64,000 nt of DNA. It comes from Candidatus Binatia bacterium (GTDB taxonomy: Bacteria > Desulfobacterota > Binatia > Bin18). Below, piece by piece: positions 5,545 through 16,299 of this stretch; the first letter of the stretch is position 1, and every line of letters starts with the position of its first letter. The notes under the pieces were generated by a model. That model made no database searches, was not told the origin of the DNA, and saw only the letters and a program-made list of their open reading frames with translations. Both the position numbers and the translations under genes were made by a program. Location: NCBI GenBank assembly GCA_963664395.2, contig OY761159.2, positions 1,248,001-1,312,000 of the forward strand, in the 5' to 3' direction.

Positions 5545-6711
5545 TTATCGACGGGTGTGCGCCCATTGAGCCTGAGGGATATCATCCGGACTGACTGCCG
5601 GGATTGTCGCTAAGGTCTGTTTCCCACGGCGGACAACGACCTCGCCAAGGACTTGATTGCGAAGAATCGGGGCTGCTACTTGTGTGGGCAGTTGGAGGGA
5701 AATGGAAACGGCTTCAACGTCGTCTTTTCGTACCAACGGTGCCGCTGTTGCTGCGGCAACTGGCTGAAAAGCTGACAGGCTTCCGTTCTCGACCCGCACC
5801 TCAACCCACAAAGGAGATCCACCTTCGATCAGTGGCAGTCGTGTAAAATTTGCGAATCCCCACTCAAGCAAATCCTCTGCAACGCGAAATCGCATTGCAC
5901 TGGTTTTCCCGCCGAAGACAATGGCAATAAGACGCAGTGAGCCCCTTTGAGCCGTAGTGACAAGATTAAAGCCCGCCTTTCTCGTAAAGCCGGTCTTGAG
6001 TCCATCGACCCCATAGGTGCGCCCAACCAGTCGGTTGGTATTCGGCAAATGCTTACGGCGCTTGCCGAATGGCATAGATGACTGCGAAGTCCACGTTAAA
6101 ACATGTTTATGACGCAAAAGTGCCCGAGCGAGAAGAGCGATATCGTCAGCCGGCGCTTTATCCGGAGCGCGATTGGTTTTGGTCGGCATTCCATTGACCG
6201 TGCGGTAGCGCGTCTGCCCCATCCCTAACTGCTGTGCGCGGGCGTTCATCCGCTGTACACATTGACTGACAGAGCCACATACGTGTTCGGCTATGGCAAC
6301 AGCAGCATCATTCGCGGAGGTGACAAGGACCGCCCGGAGCAGCTCTGCAAGTCGAAAGACTTGACCAGCCCGTAGGGAGATCGTTCGCCCTTTTGTCCGA
6401 CTCGCCCGCCGGCTAATAGTGACCCGGGTCTTAAGGCTGACCCGTCCTCTTTCAATTTCTTCAAAAACAATAAGCCCTAACATCATCTTTGTGAGAGAGG
6501 CTTGGGGCCATATTTTTTGGCTATTGTAGGAAAATAGCACTTGACCGGTCTGCGCGTCTTGTAAGAGAGCCGCTTCAAAATTTTTGGCAGCGGGCAGTTG
6601 AGGAAAGCGTTCGCTCCCTCCAAATGCGAGCGCTTTTTGTAGAGGGCCGCTCAGGAAGCTGCCGACACTAATGCAGACAAAAATACACCGCGCCCACCTG
6701 TATGATTGCAT
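5545..6711 (-). CDS. dacA: D-alanyl-D-alanine carboxypeptidase (peptidase S11, PBP5/6-like)
   Basis: SxxK (ASLTK), SxN (SANDA), KTG (GLKTGFT), signal peptide. Start uncertain (6711 or 6756). Confidence 0.88.
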   Translation of the reverse strand: MQSYRWARCIFVCISVGSFLSGPLQKALAFGGSERFPQLPAAKNFEAALLQDAQTGQVLFSYNSQKIWPQASLTKMMLGLIVFEEIERGRVSLKTRVTISRRASRTKGRTISLRAGQVFRLAELLRAVLVTSANDAAVAIAEHVCGSVSQCVQRMNARAQQLGMGQTRYRTVNGMPTKTNRAPDKAPADDIALLARALLRHKHVLTWTSQSSMPFGKRRKHLPNTNRLVGRTYGVDGLKTGFTRKAGFNLVTTAQRGSLRLIAIVFGGKTSAMRFRVAEDLLEWGFANFTRLPLIEGGSPLWVEVRVENGSLSAFQPVAAATAAPLVRKDDVEAVSISLQLPTQVAAPILRNQVLGEVVVRRGKQTLATIPAVSPDDIPQAQWAHTRR

Positions 6712-6899
6712 CCACCCCTCCTCATCCCCCGCGCATGGTCCTATATGTGGGGACATGGGCCTTTCTGGCCCATGAAAAAGTTCTAGTAGCCGATGCTAAC
6801 ATGTCGTCTAAGATACCGTCAACAAAAATCTTTTTCTTTCTCCCCGATGCTCGTCGCAGGCGGAGAGTAAAGCGAATTTCGGTACACAAGATGTTGTAC

Positions 6900-7289
6900 T
6901 TAGCGTATTTTAGCACTCAAGAGTTTGTGTAGGGATAGAATATCTCCATGAATGGCTGTCAGAACTTTTCGTTGATCTGAGCGGATGGGAAGGGGCACTT
7001 CGAGGTTCGCCTGGGAGAGAAGAAGAGACTCGCCTTCTCTCTCACCATCTTTTAGCCGCCTTTTGGCTCCTGCAATGGTGAACCCCTCTTCATACAGGAG
7101 ACGCTTAATATCGAGGAGGGTTTCGACATCACGACGGCGATATAATCGGTGGCGAGAAGGGGTTTTTCCAGGCTTGAGAATAGGGAATTCCGTTTCCCAA
7201 TACCGCAAGACGTAGGGCTTCACGCCAATAATCTTGGCGACTTCACCGATGCGGAAATAGAGCTTATTCGGGAACTCAACCGGGTCCAC
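6900..7289 (-). CDS. MerR family transcriptional regulator (conserved ihfA neighbour)
   Basis: [10 protein letters not shown]...VLRYWETEF...EGFTIAGAK; directly downstream of ihfA. Confidence 0.92.
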
Positions 7290-7296
7290 GATACGC

Positions 7297-7584
7297 TCAG
7301 TCTTGGAGGAATAGGTTAATCGCCTTCTTCAAGACGGGGCTGGGTTTAAACGACAACACACGACGGCCAGATATAATAATTTCTTTACCTGTTTGCGGAT
7401 TTCGTCCTTTACGAGGATGTTTCTCGTTAATGACAAAATTCCCAAAGCTAGAGATTTTGACCTTCTCTCCCTTTTCAAGGTGACCCTTGATGATTTCAAA
7501 AATCGATTCAACCACGTCGGTCGCTTCTTTTTTTGAAAAGCCGACCTGCTCATAAATACGCTCAACAATGTCTGCTTTTGTCAT
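7297..7584 (-). CDS. ihfA: Integration host factor subunit alpha
   Basis: MTKADIVE...VKISSFGNF...GRNPQTG; ATG at 7584. Confidence 0.93.
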
Positions 7585-7881
7585 GGGAGTACCTCGCCAT
7601 AATCCTCCATCGGTAGGAGGCAAGGGGGCTTTCATCTGAAATCACACAGGCAAGCATCCATTGGTGTTCACCAGTCGCATATGCCGTCCCTCAGGCAGAG
7701 GATAAGAGACGCAAGATTGTGTAACACCAAGACAATACTACAAACGACAACGCTGCGAACATAATGGAGCTTCGTCTTGAAGTCAAGTTTGAGCGCTCTT
7801 TGAAAATAAGCAGGGTCGGGCTTTCAGCAAAGAAGAACCAACGATAGGATAAAGAATAAACACAGAGAAGGAGGGCAGACC

Positions 7882-8895
7882 TTGCAGGAGATTCGTACTC
7901 AGTTGAGTGAAGACCTGACCGCCGCTACAACAGGCCAGGACCTCGAAGCTGTTCGTGTTCGCTATCTCGGACGGAAAGGAGCGATCACCCTGCTGCGAAA
8001 AAACGCTGACTTCTCAGCAATGTCAGCGGATGAAAAGAAACGCTTTGGACAACAGTTTAATGAACTGAAACGCTTTGCAGAGCAGCAGATTGCCGACGCC
8101 CAAGAGCGGCAGAAAAGCACGCTGCTCGACACAACTACCATCGATATGACACTTCCGGGTCTCAACAACCACCTCGGCCACCTGCACCCCATTTCTCTTG
8201 TCCAACTGGAGCTCGAAGAAATCTTTCAATCTCTGGGATTTATGATCCTTGACGGATACCACGTTGAGACGGACTTTTATAACTTTGAGAGCCTGAACAT
8301 CCCCCCTGACCACCCCGCACGAGACATGCAGGATACGTACTGGCTCAAGAATGGCTTGCTGCTCCGGACGCATACATCAGCCAATCAAGTCCGTGCGTTA
8401 GAGTACTACGGTGCCCCAGTTCGGGCTATCTTTCCAGGTCGTTGTTTTCGGAATGAAGCCATTGATCCAAGCCATGAGAATACGTTCTATCAGCTCGAAG
8501 GCTTGATGGTAGACAGGGAGATCTCTGTCGCTAATCTGATTGCCGTTATGCGCACGTTGCTGACTGCGGTTTTTCACCGAGAGGTCACTGTTCGCTTACG
8601 TCCAGGTTATTTTCCTTTTGTCGAACCCGGCTTTGAGTTAGACATCCAATGTCTGCTGTGTGAAGGCACGGGCTGTGCGACCTGCAAAAAATCCGGCTGG
8701 ATTGAATTGCTGCCGTGCGGCCTGGTGCACCCTCGGGTACTCGAATTCGGTAAGGTTGACCCAGATCACTATAGCGGGTTTGCCTTTGGCTTAGGCCTCA
8801 CCCGACTGGCCATGATGAAATATAATATTCCAGATATTCGGCTCCTGAACTCGGGCGATCTTCGTTTCTATGAGCAGTTTCCAGCAGCCGTTTGA
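7882..8895 (+). CDS. pheS: Phenylalanine--tRNA ligase alpha subunit (inverted relative to host operon)
   Basis: HPARDMQDT, LLRTHTS, FPFVEP, GFAFGLG. TTG start after GGAGG. Confidence 0.97.
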   Translation: MQEIRTQLSEDLTAATTGQDLEAVRVRYLGRKGAITLLRKNADFSAMSADEKKRFGQQFNELKRFAEQQIADAQERQKSTLLDTTTIDMTLPGLNNHLGHLHPISLVQLELEEIFQSLGFMILDGYHVETDFYNFESLNIPPDHPARDMQDTYWLKNGLLLRTHTSANQVRALEYYGAPVRAIFPGRCFRNEAIDPSHENTFYQLEGLMVDREISVANLIAVMRTLLTAVFHREVTVRLRPGYFPFVEPGFELDIQCLLCEGTGCATCKKSGWIELLPCGLVHPRVLEFGKVDPDHYSGFAFGLGLTRLAMMKYNIPDIRLLNSGDLRFYEQFPAAV

Positions 8896-8908
8896 GTAGG
8901 AGTCATGC

Positions 8909-11287
8909 ATGAAGATCTCTCTTGACTGGATCGCCCAGTATGTAGACCTCTCAGACCTCTCGCCACAAACAATTGCGCACCGGCTCACCATGGCAACGGC
9001 TGAGGTAGAAGGGATGGAAACACTGGGTCGCACACTCGATGGGGTCCGCATCGGTCATGTCCTCTCAGTTGAACCTCTTGGCGACCGGCAGACGTTCGTT
9101 TCCGTTCAGTGTGGAGCAGAGCAGTTTACGACGGTATGTGGGGCGCCCAATGTGCGGGAGGGGATGAAATCAGCCTTTGCCTCCGTTGGAGTGACGATTG
9201 CCGGGGGACAGACTATTAAAGAAAGGCAGGTTGGTGGGAAGATGAGTCAGGGCATCTTGTGCTCGTCTGAGGAATTAGGCATGGGGGGCGGACATTTCGG
9301 TATCCTTGACCTCCCCGAGTCTCTTGAGAATGGGGCCGCTCTGGCCGACTTCATTCCGTCTTCAGACACCCTGCTCGAAATCGACAACAAGAGCCTGACC
9401 CACCGCCCCGACCTCTGGGGTCACTACGGGATAGCACGTGAAGTTGCTGCCATTTTTGGGCGACCAGTACGCCCTCTCCAACTGGTAGATGTGGAGCAGT
9501 ATAACGACTTACCAGCCTATCCACTGACCATTGATGATCCCGAGAATTGTCCCTGTTATTGCTGTATCGAGATGACAGGGGTGGCGGCAATTCCCTCGCC
9601 ACTGACGCTACAGTACCGGTTGCACGCGCTTGGACAGCGAACATTCAATATTCTGGTCGACCTCACCAATTACATCATGCTCGAGCTCGGTCAGCCCATG
9701 CACGCATTCGACGCTGGCCGCCTACAGACCGTCCGTGTCGCCCCGTTTGGAACAACCAGCCGTTTTACGACTCTTGATGGACAAGCGCGACAAATGGCCC
9801 CAGATGATCTGATGATCTGGAATGAACACGAGCCGGTTGCCGTGGCTGGTATTATGGGAGGGCTGAATAGTGAGGTCAGCGAGAGTACCACCGGTCTGCT
9901 TCTTGAGAGTGCAAATTTTAAGGATGCGCGGATTCGCCGGACAGCCACACGGCTGGGTATTCATACCGACGCGAGTCAACGTTTTGAGAAGCAACAGCCG
10001 CCCGTAAATACAAAAATTGCCACCGAGCGCTTTCTCTCCCTGCTGCTCGAATCAGGCCTCCGGCCTCAGGTCCTTTCCCGGTTCACCTCTCGTGGAGCGT
10101 TGAAAGAGCATACCCGGTATCTCGATATTCCGACCGACTTCTTTGACCGGCGGATAGGCAACCCGATTGCGCCAGACAAGATTGTGTCCATACTGACCTC
10201 ACTAGGTTTTGAAGCCAGTGTTACGAACAACACCCTCTCTGTTGGAATCCCCTCGTTTCGGAGCGAGAAAGATATCTCCTTACCAGTTGATATTCTGGAA
10301 GAAGTCACACGCATTCAGGGCTATGACAACCTGGAGCCGAAGATGCCAAATTTCTCGGTGGAGCGTGTTGCCTTTCATGATCGTCTGCGGGCACAGCATA
10401 AAGCTCGTCGTATTTTAGCTCAGGCTCACGGATTCTCGGAGGTTCACAATTATAGCTGGTTTGACGAAACATGGCTCAAGACGCTCGGCTACGAGCCTGA
10501 AGCAACGCTGGAGATGGCCAATTCCAGCGCAGAACACAATGTGCGGCTGCAGACCACACTGCTACCCAATATTTTTGCCGTTGTTAAAAAAAATGCGGCA
10601 CTGCGAGACCATTTCCGAATCTTTGAGCTGGGGCGGGTCTACTTGCCTGCGGGCGAACAGGACCGTACAGAGAAGAATGTACTGTCCGGAGCAAGCCTTC
10701 AACAAGAACGCCTGGAGAGCCTGGAAGAGCATTTTCGCAAGATCAAGGGTGCCCTTGAGGCTCTAGCCAAACAGTTAAGCCTCGGCGCAGTGGCGTTTGA
10801 GCCTGCCACGACAACGACTGCACCGTGGCAAACTCCTGACAAGTATGTTGAAGTGGCATGCCAAGGTACAGGGGTCGGACACCTTGGCCTTTTGTCCGGC
10901 CCCTTATTGGCTGAAATTGCACCCAAAGCCCAAGTGGTCTGGTTCGAGCTGAATTTCGATATGCTTGAAGGGCCGCTATTTCCGGCAACCAGCTATGCCC
11001 CGGCATCCCGCTATCCTGGCTCGTGGTTTGACTTCTCTATTGTGGCCAGCGCTCAGGCGGGTTTTGCCGAGCTGGTCCGCACACTCGACAAGTTTTCTCA
11101 TACACTGCTCAAAAAGAGAGAATTTATTACCCTTTATAAGGGTAAGGGGCTTGAGGAAGGAGCAGCCAGCTACACCTTCCGTTACTGGATTGAATCCCAG
11201 GACAGCACACTCACTGGAGAGCAAATAGAAGCATTCCAGCAGGAGTATATCGCCTTCCTCCGGTCGAAAGGTCTGAGCCTCCGTTAA
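8909..11287 (+). CDS. pheT: Phenylalanine--tRNA ligase beta subunit
   Basis: MKISLDW, VCGAPNV, NKSLTHRPDLWGHYGIARE, GQPMHAFD, LESANF, DILEEVTRIQGY. Confidence 0.96.
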   Translation: MKISLDWIAQYVDLSDLSPQTIAHRLTMATAEVEGMETLGRTLDGVRIGHVLSVEPLGDRQTFVSVQCGAEQFTTVCGAPNVREGMKSAFASVGVTIAGGQTIKERQVGGKMSQGILCSSEELGMGGGHFGILDLPESLENGAALADFIPSSDTLLEIDNKSLTHRPDLWGHYGIAREVAAIFGRPVRPLQLVDVEQYNDLPAYPLTIDDPENCPCYCCIEMTGVAAIPSPLTLQYRLHALGQRTFNILVDLTNYIMLELGQPMHAFDAGRLQTVRVAPFGTTSRFTTLDGQARQMAPDDLMIWNEHEPVAVAGIMGGLNSEVSESTTGLLLESANFKDARIRRTATRLGIHTDASQRFEKQQPPVNTKIATERFLSLLLESGLRPQVLSRFTSRGALKEHTRYLDIPTDFFDRRIGNPIAPDKIVSILTSLGFEASVTNNTLSVGIPSFRSEKDISLPVDILEEVTRIQGYDNLEPKMPNFSVERVAFHDRLRAQHKARRILAQAHGFSEVHNYSWFDETWLKTLGYEPEATLEMANSSAEHNVRLQTTLLPNIFAVVKKNAALRDHFRIFELGRVYLPAGEQDRTEKNVLSGASLQQERLESLEEHFRKIKGALEALAKQLSLGAVAFEPATTTTAPWQTPDKYVEVACQGTGVGHLGLLSGPLLAEIAPKAQVVWFELNFDMLEGPLFPATSYAPASRYPGSWFDFSIVASAQAGFAELVRTLDKFSHTLLKKREFITLYKGKGLEEGAASYTFRYWIESQDSTLTGEQIEAFQQEYIAFLRSKGLSLR

Positions 11288-11292
11288 GATAA

Positions 11293-11320
11293 GGCAGGGC
11301 GACATAGACGGCGCCCTGCC
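11293..11320. terminator. Hairpin between convergent pheT and rplT
   Basis: GGCAGGGCG-N10-CGCCCTGCC; no strong U-tract. Confidence 0.5.
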
Positions 11321-11365
11321 CCTCATTCAGTAGACAAAGGATACGCAAAAGCGCGAAGAGACCTG

Positions 11366-11725
11366 CTAGGCTGCAAGACGCTGCTTCGCCAAGCCTGTGA
11401 CTACGGAAAATGCTTGGGGATCTTGCATGGCCAGGGCGGCCAGAATCTTGCGGTCGATTTCGACACCAGCCTGAGACAGGCCATGAATGAGCCGGCTATA
11501 GCTCAGCCCATTCAGTCGCGCGCCCGCATTAATCCGGACAGTCCATAAACGCCGGAAGTCACGCTTTTTATTCCTTCGGTCTCGGTAAGCGTAGACCAGG
11601 CCCCGTTCGACGGTTTCACGTGCCTGACGATACTGGCGACGACGTCCACCGGTAAACCCTTTGGTAAGTTTGAGAATCCGCTTTCTGCGCCGCCGTGCCT
11701 TAAAGCCGCGTTTTGCGCGTGGCAT
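11366..11725 (-). CDS. rplT: 50S ribosomal protein L20
   Basis: [34 protein letters not shown]. Confidence 0.98.
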
Positions 11726-11746
11726 ACTAACTACTCCTCTTCGTCT

Positions 11747-11944
11747 CTATAAGTAGGGAATCAGTTTTTTGATCGCCTTGGCCTCGGATTTTGCGACGAG
11801 TGCTGGCTGACGGAGATTCCGTTTCTGTTTTCGCGTTTTAGTTGAGAGGATATGGCGCAGGTAGGCGCGTCGGCGACGCACCTTGCCGGTTCCTGTGATC
11901 TTAAACCGCTTCGCCGCTCCACGGCGCGTTTTAATCTTGGGCAT
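11747..11944 (-). CDS. rpmI: 50S ribosomal protein L35
   Basis: [21 protein letters not shown]. Confidence 0.98.
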
Positions 11945-11946
11945 AG

Positions 11947-12462
11947 TTACCTCGGAACAACAAGAATTGACATATTTCGCCCCTCCATGCGAGGCTGTGC
12001 TGTCTCAAGAGAGGCGACATCTTCGACCTTTTCATACACACGGTTGAGTAATTCTTTTCCAATCTCTGGGTGGGTGATCTCTCGTCCTCGGAAAAAGACA
12101 GAGACCTTGACCCGATGCTTTTTCCCGATAAAGCGACGGATATGGTTAATTTTGAATTCGACGTCGTGCTCACTGGTACGCGCCCCAAGCTTGACTTCTT
12201 TGAGCATCACTTGGGTCTGGTGCTTCTTGGATTCCTGCACCTTCTTTTTCTGCAGATAGCGGTACTTGCCGTAATCCATAATGCGACAGACCGGCGGAGA
12301 AGAACTCGGAGCAATTTCAACAAGGTCAAGCTCTTGGCCGAACGCTGTGCGAAAGGCCTCGCCTAGCGGCTGAATCCCAACCTGCTCCCCATTTGCGTCA
12401 ATGACCCGGACTTCCCGAGCGCGAATCTGCTGGTTTATCCGAGTGCCCGTTTCTCTAGCTAT
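11947..12462 (-). CDS. infC: Translation initiation factor IF-3, non-canonical ATA start
   Basis: The frame extends upstream of the track ORF: ATA GCT AGA GAA...[15 protein letters not shown]...DLVEIAP...[15 protein letters not shown] at 12462-12460, 6 nt after GGAGG. Confidence 0.93.
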
Positions 12463-14315
12463 GATGCACCTCCCGGGATACGTTCATGGTTCAAACGCTC
12501 GACAAGAGCGTGCACGGACAGCGGTGCGATTTTTGCCCGCTTACGCGCCCGTAGAGCGACCGTACCAGATTGCACTTCATTATCCCCAATGACAACAGTG
12601 TACGGGATTTTCTGCATTTCCGATCCTCGGATTTTGTACCCTAGTTTCTCATTCCGCAAGTCCAGCTCACAACGGATCCCGGCCTGTCTGAGCTGTTCGT
12701 CGACTTGCCGCGCATAGGCGTCTTGATTATTTGTCACCGTCACAATCTTCACCTGGACCGGAGCCAACCACAACGGGAAATCTCCACCACAGTGTTCGAT
12801 CAGGACACCCATAAAGCGTTCGATGGAGCCGAGGACGGCGCGATGGATCATCACAGGACGGGCTTCCTCCCCGTGGGTTGTGACGTAGGTCAAGTCAAAG
12901 CGTTCAGGCAGCATAAAGTCGAGCTGAATCGTTGCAAGTTGCCATTTACGGCGTAGGGCGTCGAGTACGATGAAGTCAATTTTTGGTCCGTAAAAGGCGC
13001 CATCCGCCGCATTGACTTCGTAGGGAATCTCATTTGCCTTGAGGGCTCCATCCAGGGCCGCTTCCGCCCTATCCCAGATTGCATCGTCGCCCAGCCGTTT
13101 TTCCGGTCGCGTCGCAAGATAAAAATGTACCTCCTCAAAGCCAAAGGTCCGATAGACTTCGTTAATCATGCGCAGGACGCCACCGACTTCAGCCTCGATT
13201 TGTTCCGGAGTGCAGAAAATATGAGCATCATCCTGAGAGAATGAACGCACCCGAGTCAGGCCGGCTAAGACACCCGAGCGCTCGAAACGATGCAGGCGGG
13301 CAAAGTCCGCATAGCGCAGCGGTAGGTCCCGGTATGAGTGCTTCTTGGCTGCATAGATATAGGTATGACCGGGGCAATTCATGGGCTTGACGCCAAAGCC
13401 GCGCCCTTCAACCTCAGTAAAGAACATATTTTCTTTGTAGTTATCGTAGTGGCCGGAACGGTGCCATAGATCAACATCAAAGATCTGTGGGGTTATTACT
13501 TCCTGGTAGCCATAGCGCTGGTAGAGCCCCCGGATATATGAGACCAGTTCATTATAGATAAAGGCCCCTTTGGGGTGAAAAAATGGACTCCCTGGCGCAA
13601 CTGGATGAAAGCTAAAAAGATCAAGTTCCTTTCCTACGCGACGGTGGTCACGCCGTTTGGCTTCCTCAAGCAATGCGAGGTGTTGACGGAGTTCTTTTGG
13701 CGTGGCAAAGGCAGTCCCGTAGATGCGTTGGAGCATCTCGTTTTTTTCGTCTCCCCGCCAGTACGCCCCGGCTACGCTGGTGAGTTTAAACGCCTGGATG
13801 CTGCCAGTTGACGGAACATGCGGGCCGCGGCACAGGTCAACGAACTCACCCTGGCGATAAAGCGAGAGTATTTCATCCTCCGGGATGCCTTCGATAATCT
13901 CAGCTTTATATTCTTCGCCCATCTCCCGGAATAAACGAACCGCATCATTGCGAGGCACTTCTTCACGGGTGACCGGGAAGTTTTCTTTGACAATAGCCTG
14001 CATCTCCGCTTCGATGCGTTCTAAATCTTCCGGTGTGAAGGAACGCTCGTGCTTAAAGTCGTAGTAGAATCCACTCTCGATAACGGGGCCAATCGTTATT
14101 TGAACTTCAGGAAAGAGGCGTTTGACTGCTTGCGCCATGAGATGGGCAGTCGAATGGCGCAAGACTTCGAGCCCTTCAGGAGAGGAAGGAAGAATAGGCT
14201 CGGCCTCATCAGGGGCCAGGAGGGATGACACGTCAACGACTTTTTCATCCACTCGTGCGGCAATTGCCTTTGAGAAACGCCGGCTTAAGTCTTTATGTTG
14301 AGCAATTTCATTCAT
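12459..14315 (-). CDS. thrS: Threonine--tRNA ligase
   Basis: RHSTAHLMA, DLCRGPH, LQRIYGT, KPMNCPGH, GAFYGPKID, IHRA. Start ATG 14315 or GTG 14342. Confidence 0.97.
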   Translation of the reverse strand: MNEIAQHKDLSRRFSKAIAARVDEKVVDVSSLLAPDEAEPILPSSPEGLEVLRHSTAHLMAQAVKRLFPEVQITIGPVIESGFYYDFKHERSFTPEDLERIEAEMQAIVKENFPVTREEVPRNDAVRLFREMGEEYKAEIIEGIPEDEILSLYRQGEFVDLCRGPHVPSTGSIQAFKLTSVAGAYWRGDEKNEMLQRIYGTAFATPKELRQHLALLEEAKRRDHRRVGKELDLFSFHPVAPGSPFFHPKGAFIYNELVSYIRGLYQRYGYQEVITPQIFDVDLWHRSGHYDNYKENMFFTEVEGRGFGVKPMNCPGHTYIYAAKKHSYRDLPLRYADFARLHRFERSGVLAGLTRVRSFSQDDAHIFCTPEQIEAEVGGVLRMINEVYRTFGFEEVHFYLATRPEKRLGDDAIWDRAEAALDGALKANEIPYEVNAADGAFYGPKIDFIVLDALRRKWQLATIQLDFMLPERFDLTYVTTHGEEARPVMIHRAVLGSIERFMGVLIEHCGGDFPLWLAPVQVKIVTVTNNQDAYARQVDEQLRQAGIRCELDLRNEKLGYKIRGSEMQKIPYTVVIGDNEVQSGTVALRARKRAKIAPLSVHALVERLNHERIPGGAS

Positions 14316-14323
14316 ATGGAAAA

Positions 14324-14356
14324 GGAAAGAGGCATCAGTCACAGATGCCTCTTTCC
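14324..14356 (-). promoter_or_regulatory. Perfect 13-bp stem-loop immediately upstream of thrS (tRNA terminator and/or translational operator)
   Basis: Minus strand GGAAAGAGGCATC-TGTGACT-GATGCCTCTTTCC, then TTTTCCAT and the ATG. Confidence 0.6.
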
Positions 14357-14442
14357 CCTCTATTCACACATAAGAGGGGTCTCTTTACCTCGGTGTCATA
14401 GATATATGCATACGCTCTGATTTGTACGATATTTTATAGGCA

Positions 14443-14514
14443 TAGGCACGGGCGGGATCGAACCGCCGACCCCTTCCGCGTCAAGGAAGTGCTCTCCCAC
14501 TGAGCTACGTGCCT
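14443..14514 (-). tRNA. tRNA-Val (GAC)
   Basis: AGGCACGTAGCTCAGTGGGAGAGCACTTCCTT-GAC-GCGGAAGGGGTCGGCGGTTCGATCCCGCCCGTGCCTA; CCA not encoded. Confidence 0.95.
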
Positions 14515-14591
14515 GCAGCTCGCCCCACTGTTCAACATGTCAATATGCGCTTGGTGCGTACCAATTTTCCTAGAGTGTGTCAAGAAAATGA

Positions 14592-15044
14592 TCAATCCGC
14601 ACTTTCCGGATTGATCCGAACGGTGACACTAGCTCCAACGCCTCCACCGAGACGAATAGGCACGGTATAGGTACCAAGCTGTTTAATGGGCTCTGCAAGG
14701 ATGATTTTTCGTCGGTCTATGGTCACGCCTTGTTTCCGGAGCGCCTTTTCAATATCGATGTTCGTCACAGAGCCAAATAGCTTGTCTTCTTCTCCAGCAC
14801 GCGCGGCGATAGCCAAGGTGAGGCTGGACAGCCGCTCACGTACGGCGTTCGCGTTCTCTTGCGCGCGTTCTCTTTTCGTTGCAGCGAGACGTTTTTGGTG
14901 CTCTAAGACCCGAACGTTACGCCGGCTGGCCCTAAGCGCAAGGCCGCGTGGGAGCAAATAGTTCCGAGCGTATCCATCTCTGACTTTGATAATGTCGCCG
15001 ATTTCTCCAATATTTTCGACGTCTTCTTGTAAAATAATCTCCAT
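14592..15044 (-). CDS. rplI: 50S ribosomal protein L9
   Basis: MEIILQEDV...VRDGYARNYLLPRG...KLFGSVT. Confidence 0.97.
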   Translation of the reverse strand: MEIILQEDVENIGEIGDIIKVRDGYARNYLLPRGLALRASRRNVRVLEHQKRLAATKRERAQENANAVRERLSSLTLAIAARAGEEDKLFGSVTNIDIEKALRKQGVTIDRRKIILAEPIKQLGTYTVPIRLGGGVGASVTVRINPESAD

Positions 15045-15110: not shown

Positions 15111-15386
15111 CTATACCTGCGCCGAAACGTAGGGGAGTAAGGCTATCGCACGCGATTGTTTAATCGCCAAGGTGAGTTTCCTCTGATGCCACATGCAGGT
15201 ACCGGTGATGCGACTCGGGATAATCTTTCCACGCTCAGTAACAAAATCTTTGAGTGTGGCGGTTTCTTTGTAGTCAATGAAATCACGTTTATCTACGCAG
15301 AAACGGCAGACTTTACGCCGCATACGTCGGGGATATCGGTCATCACCGCCTCGTCGGTTAAATGTCCCTCTGGGTGGTCTTGCCAT
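15111..15386 (-). CDS. rpsR: 30S ribosomal protein S18
   Basis: RRKVCRFC...IDYK...[12 protein letters not shown]...ALLPY; ATG at 15386. Confidence 0.97.
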
Positions 15387-15435
15387 AGCTACTCCCTCTA
15401 CTCTTTCGCTCGTGGTCCGCAGGATGCAGTGTTCT

Positions 15436-15750
15436 TTATTCCTCAAGAATACGGATCGTTGTCGCGTGCACTTCATACACTCTTTGTCTTGCACCTGCCG
15501 CTTTATTCCCCCGATATGCTGCAAGCATCCCCTCTACCAAAACGGCCTGTCCAGTTGTCAACACCGGACAATACTCCTCTGCAAGCGTCCGAAAAGCAAC
15601 AATGTCAACAAGTAAATCTTCTTCTTTCTCTCGACTTTTCGGTACGCATAAGGAAAACGCACCAACGGCAACGCCCTGTGGTGTACGACGCAGTTCCGGA
15701 CTTCTCTCAATCCGTCCGGCAAAGATCACTTTATTATAGCCTTTCCTCAC
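15436..15750 (-). CDS. Short single-OB-fold ssDNA-binding protein (PriB-like or divergent SSB)
   Basis: [37 protein letters not shown]. 104 aa, no DDIPF tail, located between rpsF and rpsR. Confidence 0.75.
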
Positions 15751-15759
15751 TCAAGCAGC

Positions 15760-16299
15760 TCATTCCTCGTCCGTCTTTTCCTCCGAATCAGTCTGCGCCT
15801 CGGTCGTTTCCGAACCCTCTCCCTCTTGGGCCTCCGCCTGCGCCTCGGTCGCCGTCTCTTCTGCATTCGCTACGGCAGCACTTAAAGCAGAGCTGGCAGG
15901 GCTGACAGGATTGGCAGCCCCCGCTGGCGTCGGATCCGTATCCGCCTTAAGTGGACGGCTTGCAGGCCGGTCAGTTAAGCCACCCGGAGGAATGGGAGAC
16001 TGTCCGTCCGAGGGAGCGGAGCGCGCGACGGATAAAAAGCGCATTGCGTCTTCACTCAACCGTAAGCCTCGCTCAAGATCTTTTACCGCTTGGGGGAGAG
16101 ATTCATACTCCAAACGCACATAGTAGCCGCGTCTCTGCTTTTGAATGTCGTAGGCTAAATTCCGCAGCCCCCACTCTTCAACCTGCAACAGACTCGCCTG
16201 GCTCTCCTCCAAAGTCTTTTGCAGCCCTTCAATCACGTCCTTCACCCGTGCTTCAGACAGTTCTGGGTGGAGAATGCATACTGTTTCATAAATCGGCAT
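15760..16299 (-). CDS. rpsF: 30S ribosomal protein S6 with long low-complexity acidic tail
   Basis: YETVCILHP...EEWGLRNLAYDIQK...GYY...MRFLSV. Confidence 0.95.
   Translation of the reverse strand: MPIYETVCILHPELSEARVKDVIEGLQKTLEESQASLLQVEEWGLRNLAYDIQKQRRGYYVRLEYESLPQAVKDLERGLRLSEDAMRFLSVARSAPSDGQSPIPPGGLTDRPASRPLKADTDPTPAGAANPVSPASSALSAAVANAEETATEAQAEAQEGEGSETTEAQTDSEEKTDEE

Follow-up and report, generated by a model that had tools for sequence, protein, structure and literature searches.

How did the pheS and pheT genes of a Candidatus Binatia genome come to face against the gene cluster in which they lie, and are they the lineage's own genes? The window analysed here, a 64-kb stretch of contig OY761159.2, contains the seven genes thrS-infC-rpmI-rplT-pheS-pheT-ihfA adjacent to one another and in the cluster order of E. 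coli. The genes were assigned by NCBIfam and Pfam profile searches of the open reading frames (ORFs) of the window, and their coordinates are collected in Table 1. The cluster is not co-directional; pheS-pheT (pheST) is on the plus strand and the other five genes are on the minus strand, with thrS-infC-rpmI-rplT on one side of pheST and ihfA, together with a merR-family gene, on the other. An earlier note on this DNA had described the opposite-strand placement, which the gene calls confirm, and had explained it by a foreign phenylalanyl-tRNA synthetase (PheRS) that replaced the native genes in situ. The analysis leads to a different explanation. Flipping positions 7585-11365 restores the exact E. 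coli order and orientation, and quite probably the native pheST was turned within the canonical cluster by one old inversion event, which became fixed in the ancestor of a Binatia clade.

The protein products are those of a bacterial-type PheRS. Both subunits exceed the equivalog cut-offs of their families (Table 1). PheS, the subunit with the class II core, carries the Pfam domains tRNA-synt_2d and Phe_tRNA-synt_N, and PheT carries all five bacterial domains (tRNA_bind, B3_4, B5, tRNA_synthFbeta and FDX-ACB), in each case above the Pfam gathering thresholds. With the archaeal PheRS models the scores are much smaller, 177.8 and 76.6, and do not reach the cut-offs. PheS is 38% identical to its E. 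coli counterpart and 78-97% identical to its Binatia relatives; PheT is 29% identical to E. coli PheT. Homology, together with the presence of a sole pheST copy in the window, predicts that the pair functions as the PheRS of this organism, in aminoacylation and editing.

The layout is shared by related genomes. A PheT scan with one genome per species gave matches in 35 stretches; a relative is encoded in 31 of these, at 27 distinct loci. Twenty-six of these loci are Candidatus Binatia-like (PheT 67-90% identical) and the remaining one is from a Planctomycetota metagenome-assembled genome (MAG), with 30% identity. The related loci were searched by tblastn with 13 window proteins. The identical layout, groEL-dac-merR-ihfA(-) pheS-pheT(+) rplT-rpmI-infC-thrS-rplI(-), where dac denotes the D-Ala-D-Ala carboxypeptidase gene, was found in 21 of the 26 Binatia-like loci, synteny in related genomes being one of the checks that the earlier note had called for; likewise, the merR-family gene stands beside ihfA in 21 of 26. 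With 21 independent assemblies sharing the layout, neither chance nor faulty assembly can account for it. A mis-join at both spacers that turned the segment over in assembly has the unusual orientation in its favour and nothing more, whereas both junctions are common to the 21 assemblies, 14 of which place them on contigs of 3.8-6.0 Mb, and the sequence blocks next to the junctions are conserved. Such a mis-join has a negligible probability, and mis-assembly may be regarded as excluded for practical purposes. Three of the related records carry other names, L019 and L020 being titled 'uncultured Enterobacteriaceae bacterium' and L007 'Thermodesulfobacteriota bacterium'. All three have a Binatia-type locus (PheT 75-87%) with identical synteny, and the names look like taxonomic mislabels.

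A foreign pheST cassette that replaced the native genes in situ, landing inverted between rplT and ihfA, would account for the inverted orientation, for the separate upstream region and for a PheT motif unlike that of E. coli. However, pheST co-diverges with both of its flanks. Among the window and the 21 same-layout loci (231 pairs), the p-distances of PheS+PheT correlate with those of ThrS+InfC+RpmI+RplT with an r of 0.955, a value as high as this being reached in 0 of 2000 Mantel permutations, and with those of IhfA+MerR+Dac with an r of 0.968. When maximum-likelihood trees were built for PheST and for the seven proteins of the flanks, 12 of 19 bipartitions were common to both, every deep one included. 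The comparison of PheS/PheT trees with ThrS/RplT trees, which the earlier note had proposed as a check of foreign origin, shows congruence in the deep splits within Binatia, and PheS and PheT group with all other sampled Binatia, a grouping that counts against xenology at the level of the host lineage. The composition of the two genes is normal as well. The G+C content at third codon positions (GC3) is 0.552 for pheS and 0.568 for pheT, with 0.552 for thrS and a window mean of 0.617 (standard deviation 0.065); the z-scores are -1.0, -0.75 and -1.0 for pheS, pheT and thrS, respectively, and the codon-usage deviation of pheS and pheT is below the window mean. The junctions carry neither repeats nor mobile-element scars. 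The search of positions 7200-11800 identified no direct or inverted repeat of at least 12 nt bracketing both junctions, in agreement with the earlier note, and other pairs were short and at chance level. A single 12-nt pair (I21) has one arm in the upstream spacer and the other beyond the opposite junction, inside rplT. Four signs by which a transfer might be recognized, within-lineage discordance, atypical composition, nesting of PheT in a donor clade and junction scars, were absent. Moreover, replacement via homologous flanks keeps orientation, so that an inversion is needed in any case.

The five remaining Binatia-like loci (L011, L022, L023, L024 and L026) have neither rplT nor ihfA in the flanks examined. 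Their PheRS is of the type found in the window (identity to the window proteins 78-82% for PheS and 67-71% for PheT), which also argues against a replacement tied to this slot. In four of the five, trpS directly follows pheT, the pheS-pheT-trpS clusters spanning L011:8973-13420, L023:8983-13369, L024:370-4776 and L026:8983-13400, and L022 ends just past pheT. The trpS genes were identified by TIGR00233 in L011 and L024 and by PF00579 in L011, L023 and L026. Metabolic genes surround this three-synthetase cluster, among them those for Rieske dioxygenase subunits and a luciferase-like monooxygenase. When the two layouts (22 in-slot inverted, 5 elsewhere) are placed on a PheS+PheT tree of 27 Binatia rows with Thermogutta as the root, 1 change is enough to explain them. 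Because the PheRS type is the same across Binatia whatever its position, any transfer would predate the rearrangement and be unconnected to it.

The earlier note had also taken as a sign of foreignness that PheT carries DNKSLTHRPDLWGHYG instead of the usual TPNR-type motif. The motif is indeed present, and the corresponding residues of E. coli K-12 PheT are SVTPNRADCLGIIG. Its interpretation did not hold, because the motif marks a large multi-phylum subfamily. Of the 120 best homologs, 117 have the pattern DNK[ST].T.RPDLW.H. When 1.84 billion cluster representatives were searched exhaustively and the best 150 (50%-identity clusters) examined, a DNKS-T-[HN]R-D-LW-type motif (DNKSLTHRPDLWGHYG type) was seen in 144, down to 30-32% identity. 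Five of the other six are fragments or unmatched by the pattern, and in one the match is misplaced in a C-terminal fragment. The named members of the motif-bearing clusters include Clostridia, Phycisphaerae, Myxococcales, Planctomycetota, a Thermodesulfobacteriota MAG, Thermoguttaceae, Omnitrophota and KSB1. The DNKS-T-[HN]RPDLW form thus defines a large multi-phylum PheT subfamily and should not be read as a sign of gene transfer. Given the recurrent layout, the parallel divergence of pheST and its flanks, the single layout change on the tree and the wide spread of the motif, the in-situ replacement is largely refuted and we judge it very improbable.

Searched alone against the PDB, the motif segment has a sole match, 2cxi (a PheRS beta-chain fragment with TNRPDLWS), with an E value of 0.25. 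We take 2cxi to be an archaeal (Pyrococcus) PheRS beta chain, in which case the RPDLW form, far from exotic, is probably old. No solved structure seems to exist for the DNKS-type bacterial PheT subfamily. The Planctomycetota MAG locus recovered in the scan (L027:9815-11902) encodes a 695-residue PheT that is devoid of the tRNA-binding (B2) domain and has a canonical TSNRSDCL motif; other Planctomycetota have full-length PheT of the DNKS type. The nearest structural look-alikes of PheT in the ESM Atlas are generic PheT clusters labelled Bacillota and Spirochaetota, and are phylogenetically uninformative. Literature searches, which returned mostly abstracts, found nothing in print there on a pheST inversion or on the DNKS-type PheT subfamily; infC-rplT-pheST are mentioned as conserved neighbours in two FCB phyla (PMC9727166).

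Several observations weigh against a simple inversion of native genes. The direction of the event, from a co-directional ancestor to the present order, is deduced from parsimony and from E. coli alone. Seven of the 19 bipartitions, all shallow, differ between PheST and the flanking proteins of close relatives, a disagreement that could be noise or recombination among close relatives. The search in which pheS-pheT emerged as the sole pheST copy was confined to the 64-kb window. The promoter and terminator roles proposed below have consensus matches and conservation as their basis, and the hairpin between the pheT and rplT stop codons (Table 1) is missing in 6 of 21 relatives, those with a spacer of 13 bp (L017-L020) or 36 bp (L005 and L021); L025 has a 237-bp pheT-rplT spacer with a different fold. 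Finally, the nearest relatives outside Binatia are not the same for PheRS and for its neighbour ThrS. The named non-Binatia matches of PheT at 51-56% identity are KSB1 (one), Thermoguttaceae, Pirellulaceae, Thermogutta and Planctomycetota (five in all), and Omnitrophota. All 10 organism-named matches of PheS at 67-71% are Thermogutta, Planctomycetota or Planctomycetia, and the named matches of ThrS just outside Binatia (67-68%) are Methylomirabilota and Zixibacteria. An identity of ~70% across phyla is notably close for PheS, since its identity to E. coli PheS is no more than 38%. These differing nearest relatives, drawn from a handful of organism-named matches in top-match lists that are not phylogenies, are compatible with an ancient inter-phylum transfer of pheST.

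The PheT tree calculated with IQ-TREE under a site-heterogeneous model comprises 41 rows, and its supports are values of the SH-like approximate likelihood ratio test (SH-aLRT). Binatia PheT forms a clade of its own (100) and Thermoguttaceae/Pirellulaceae PheT a separate clade (99). Both are within a 30-row clade (99), in an unresolved polytomy with KSB1/Omnitrophota. The 30-row clade has as its next sister a representative with a Thermodesulfobacteriota MAG in its cluster. The trees calculated with FastTree from 109 and 160 PheT rows agree that Binatia are a separate clade. Standing in its own clade, Binatia PheT is nested within no donor. The PheT sequences of Planctomycetota are found in several parts of the tree (P0413, P0407 and the Thermoguttaceae clade). 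In a deep PheS FastTree of 128 rows the 'Binatia-like' set of 30 does not form a clean clade (7 extra tips, support 17); no conclusion is drawn from this tree, given the shortness of PheS and the shallow set.

A class-level or older exchange of the whole pheST with Planctomycetota (Pirellulales), KSB1, Omnitrophota or another lineage, in either direction and long before and independent of the inversion, would explain the identities of PheS (67-71%) and PheT (51-56%) to Thermogutta, Thermoguttaceae, Pirellulaceae, KSB1 and Omnitrophota, when Planctomycetota, KSB1 and Omnitrophota are not among the named top matches of ThrS. It would also explain the position of Binatia PheT with those phyla in the well-supported 30-row clade. 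Aminoacyl-tRNA synthetases are well known to be horizontally transferred, and PheT clearly moves between phyla, as seen from the scattered Planctomycetota sequences and from the canonical TSNRSDCL type of L027. Nonetheless, Binatia are a separate clade in the polytomy, nested in no phylum, and this PheRS type also occurs in lineages classically grouped with Binatia (the Thermodesulfobacteriota MAG cluster and a Myxococcales MAG). Few of the matches carry organism names, the match lists are no phylogenies, and that pheST still occupies exactly the ancestral slot is explained more simply if it has always been there. We consider an exchange of this kind unlikely, though not to be neglected. More doubtful still is the particular course in which a complete pheST operon spread early among Binatia, the Pirellulales branch, KSB1 and Omnitrophota (PheS ~70%, PheT ~53%) and in Binatia took over the ancestral slot, the reversed or relocated position being its lasting trace.

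Inversion of the native pheST joins the gene identities, the layout and its conservation, the way in which pheST diverges along with its flanks and the wide distribution of the motif, all of them observed, into one account. From an ancestral thrS-infC-rpmI-rplT-pheS-pheT-ihfA(-merR) cluster, the 3.7-kb pheS-pheT segment would have been turned by a single ancient inversion with breakpoints in the rplT-pheS and pheT-ihfA spacers. The inversion would have become fixed in the common ancestor of one whole clade of Binatia, the genes being the lineage's own PheRS. Since then, pheST would have been an independent two-gene operon, read from a promoter-like block ~30-60 nt upstream and with a short leader that has neither attenuator nor T-box. 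The ihfA-merR pair would be served by a divergent, conserved sigma-70-like promoter, and pheST and the rplT operon would converge on a hairpin between both stops that ends transcription. As pheST is opposite in orientation, it must have a transcript separate from that of the rplT operon and from that of ihfA; the orientation thus supports the uncoupling of PheRS and integration host factor (IHF) from the ribosomal operon that the earlier note had proposed.

The divergent spacer upstream of pheS has exactly the length reported earlier, and it varies between 210 and 343 bp across the 21 related loci. An alignment of the spacer from 15 loci (A1), including L025, the most distant one with the same layout, contains three blocks that are invariant in 15/15 aligned loci and are distributed on both sides of the spacer. 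Towards ihfA-merR, AAGTCAAG, which covers the -35 hexamer of the sigma-70-like match, is invariant in 15/15 relatives, L025 included. Four of the six bases of the -10 hexamer (AACATA on the plus strand) are invariant and the remaining two are at least 90% conserved. This site is a candidate ihfA-merR promoter, and the palindrome over its -35 element may be an operator for the neighbouring MerR-family protein or for IHF itself. On the pheS side, the conserved block that includes GGGCTTTC is a candidate pheS promoter, a role put forward with reserve because the block matches the sigma-70 -35 consensus poorly. It would leave a 5' untranslated region of ~25 nt, too short for an attenuator or a T-box. 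A generic promoter/terminator scan returned no more sites than were found in shuffled sequences (4 vs 3.3; 8 vs 5.6), and a single promoter match was kept, the one that coincides with an invariant block. The Rfam search of positions 6500-15000 at E<=1 identified no T-box, leader or L20 leader, its matches being a tRNA-Val and two chance microRNA matches only, and the 297-bp spacer contains no Phe-rich small ORF, the maximum being 2 Phe in an ORF of 26-31 residues. These searches bear out the earlier statement that T-box and Phe-rich leader are absent; no Phe-responsive leader, whether a pheM attenuator or a T-box, was found before pheS.

The stop codons of pheT and rplT face each other across a spacer of 78 bp. 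The hairpin facing rplT that the earlier note had described was confirmed by folding on both strands, with energies of -19.9 kcal/mol on the plus strand (z -3.9, 0/200 shuffles as good) and -22.0 kcal/mol on the minus strand (z -3.0, 1/200 shuffles as good). Among the 16 relatives in which the spacer measures 65-78 bp, ~11 form a similar stem, with compensatory changes in three of the six consensus pairs. Together with the invariant blocks of the divergent spacer, these changes suggest regulatory elements that have long been settled, in keeping with an old inversion. A weak U-rich stretch follows the hairpin on the rplT side only, and the generic scan did not class the element as a terminator because no T run follows. 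Its fold and conservation make it a probable terminator, mainly for rplT.

Read in this way, a striking local anomaly in a textbook cluster becomes a stable, clade-defining inversion in the uncultured class Candidatus Binatia, and the two pheST layouts, needing one change on the tree, may serve as a marker that splits Binatia lineages. The layout also suggests a natural example of PheRS and IHF-alpha expression with no link to the L20 operon and with no Phe-sensing leader. A possible movement of PheRS among Binatia, Planctomycetota, KSB1 and Omnitrophota would be of ordinary interest, synthetase transfer being well known. The GC skew of the plus strand is -0.049 over the window and negative in every 8-kb bin (-0.026 to -0.085). 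Given this negative skew, the minus strand is probably the leading strand, which suggests that pheST is head-on to replication and the rest of the cluster co-directional with it; little weight is attached to this, the gene strand bias being weak (22 plus vs 26 minus).

Table 1 Features of the pheST locus in the window (positions count from the first letter of the window).
Feature	Position	Strand	Basis
merR-family regulator	6900-7289	-	Pfam MerR_1 74 bits; weak NCBIfam matches CarH, HspR, MlrA; directly downstream of ihfA
ihfA (integration host factor alpha, 95 aa)	7297-7584	-	NF001401 124 bits vs cut-off 111
Divergent spacer between ihfA and pheS start codons	7585-7881	.	297 bp, read from sequence
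Candidate sigma-70-like promoter TTGACT-17-TATGTT toward ihfA-merR	7758-7786	-	Consensus scan, 9/12 positions
Perfect 5-2-5 palindrome CTTGA-AG-TCAAG over the -35 element	7776-7787	.	Sequence; AAGTCAAG core invariant in A1
Conserved block GGGCTTTC ... TAGGAT, ~30-60 nt before pheS (candidate promoter)	7818-7850	+	Both elements invariant in 15/15 relatives
GGAGG ribosome-binding site, 7 nt before pheS TTG	7870-7874	+	Sequence; invariant in A1
pheS (PheRS alpha subunit, 337 aa, TTG start)	7882-8895	+	TIGR00468 270.1 bits vs cut-off 237.45
pheT (PheRS beta subunit, 792 aa)	8909-11287	+	TIGR00472 545.1 bits vs cut-off 402.65
PheT motif EIDNKSLTHRPDLWGHYG codons (residues 157-174)	9377-9430	+	Between tRNA_bind and B3_4 domains
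G+C-rich hairpin between convergent pheT and rplT stops	11293-11320	.	Folding energies
rplT (L20)	11366-11725	-	TIGR01032 153 bits
rpmI (L35)	11747-11944	-	TIGR00001 90 bits
infC (IF-3)	11947 to ~12462	-	TIGR00168; non-canonical start, ATA 12462 or ATC 12465, after GGAGG
thrS	12459-14342	-	TIGR00418 734 bits; 49% identical to E. coli ThrS

The starts of two of the genes call for comment. The ihfA ORF extends to 7635 and the hidden Markov model match begins at residue 17-18; the ATG at 7584 gives the 95-residue form, which spans the whole Pfam model (Bac_DNA_binding, residues 1-90) and is 46% identical to E. coli IhfA. For infC, the alignment with E. coli InfC reaches 12444, and no in-frame ATG, GTG or TTG is present between there and the upstream stop. 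The start region (12459-12470, minus strand) reads ATC ATA after GGAGG, and the ATA overlaps the thrS stop TAG. In E. coli, infC starts at AUU, a non-canonical start known from its autoregulation. Beyond thrS, a tRNA-Val(GAC) gene (14443-14514, minus strand) lies between thrS and rpsF-rpsR-rplI. The rpsF ORF (15760-16299, minus strand) encodes 179 residues, of which the S6 model covers residues 3-92 only; this coverage and the wide range of identity to relatives (61-90%) suggest a variable C-terminal tail. The rpsR ORF (15111-15524, minus strand) encodes 137 residues and the S18 model matches residues 68-134 only, so either the true start is later or an N-terminal extension is present.

The locus can be compared with three known arrangements. 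The Binatia with pheS-pheT-trpS resemble the window in having the same PheRS type and in the detachment of pheST from the rplT operon; they differ in that their pheST is outside the slot, whereas that of the window stayed between rplT and ihfA and was flipped. Solved bacterial heterotetrameric PheRS structures such as 2rhs, 3pco, 1b70 and 4p71 align with residues 1-792 of the window PheT with E values of 5e-96 to 4e-78 and have the same five-domain beta subunit. At the motif site, which was compared in the E. coli chain only, E. coli PheT (3pco) has the TPNRADCL form, unlike the window PheT. The co-directional cluster cited in the earlier note is seen in E. coli K-12, where thrS-infC-rpmI-rplT-pheM-pheS-pheT-ihfA (NC_000913.3, 1795253-1802570) are all on one strand. 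The window has the same eight-gene content minus pheM, in the same order, with ihfA adjoining pheST and with an infC that, as in E. coli, has a non-AUG start. However, its pheS-pheT is on the opposite strand, it has no pheM leader peptide or attenuator, co-transcription of its ihfA with pheT is impossible, a merR-family gene comes after ihfA, and its cluster proteins share only 29-55% identity with their E. coli counterparts.

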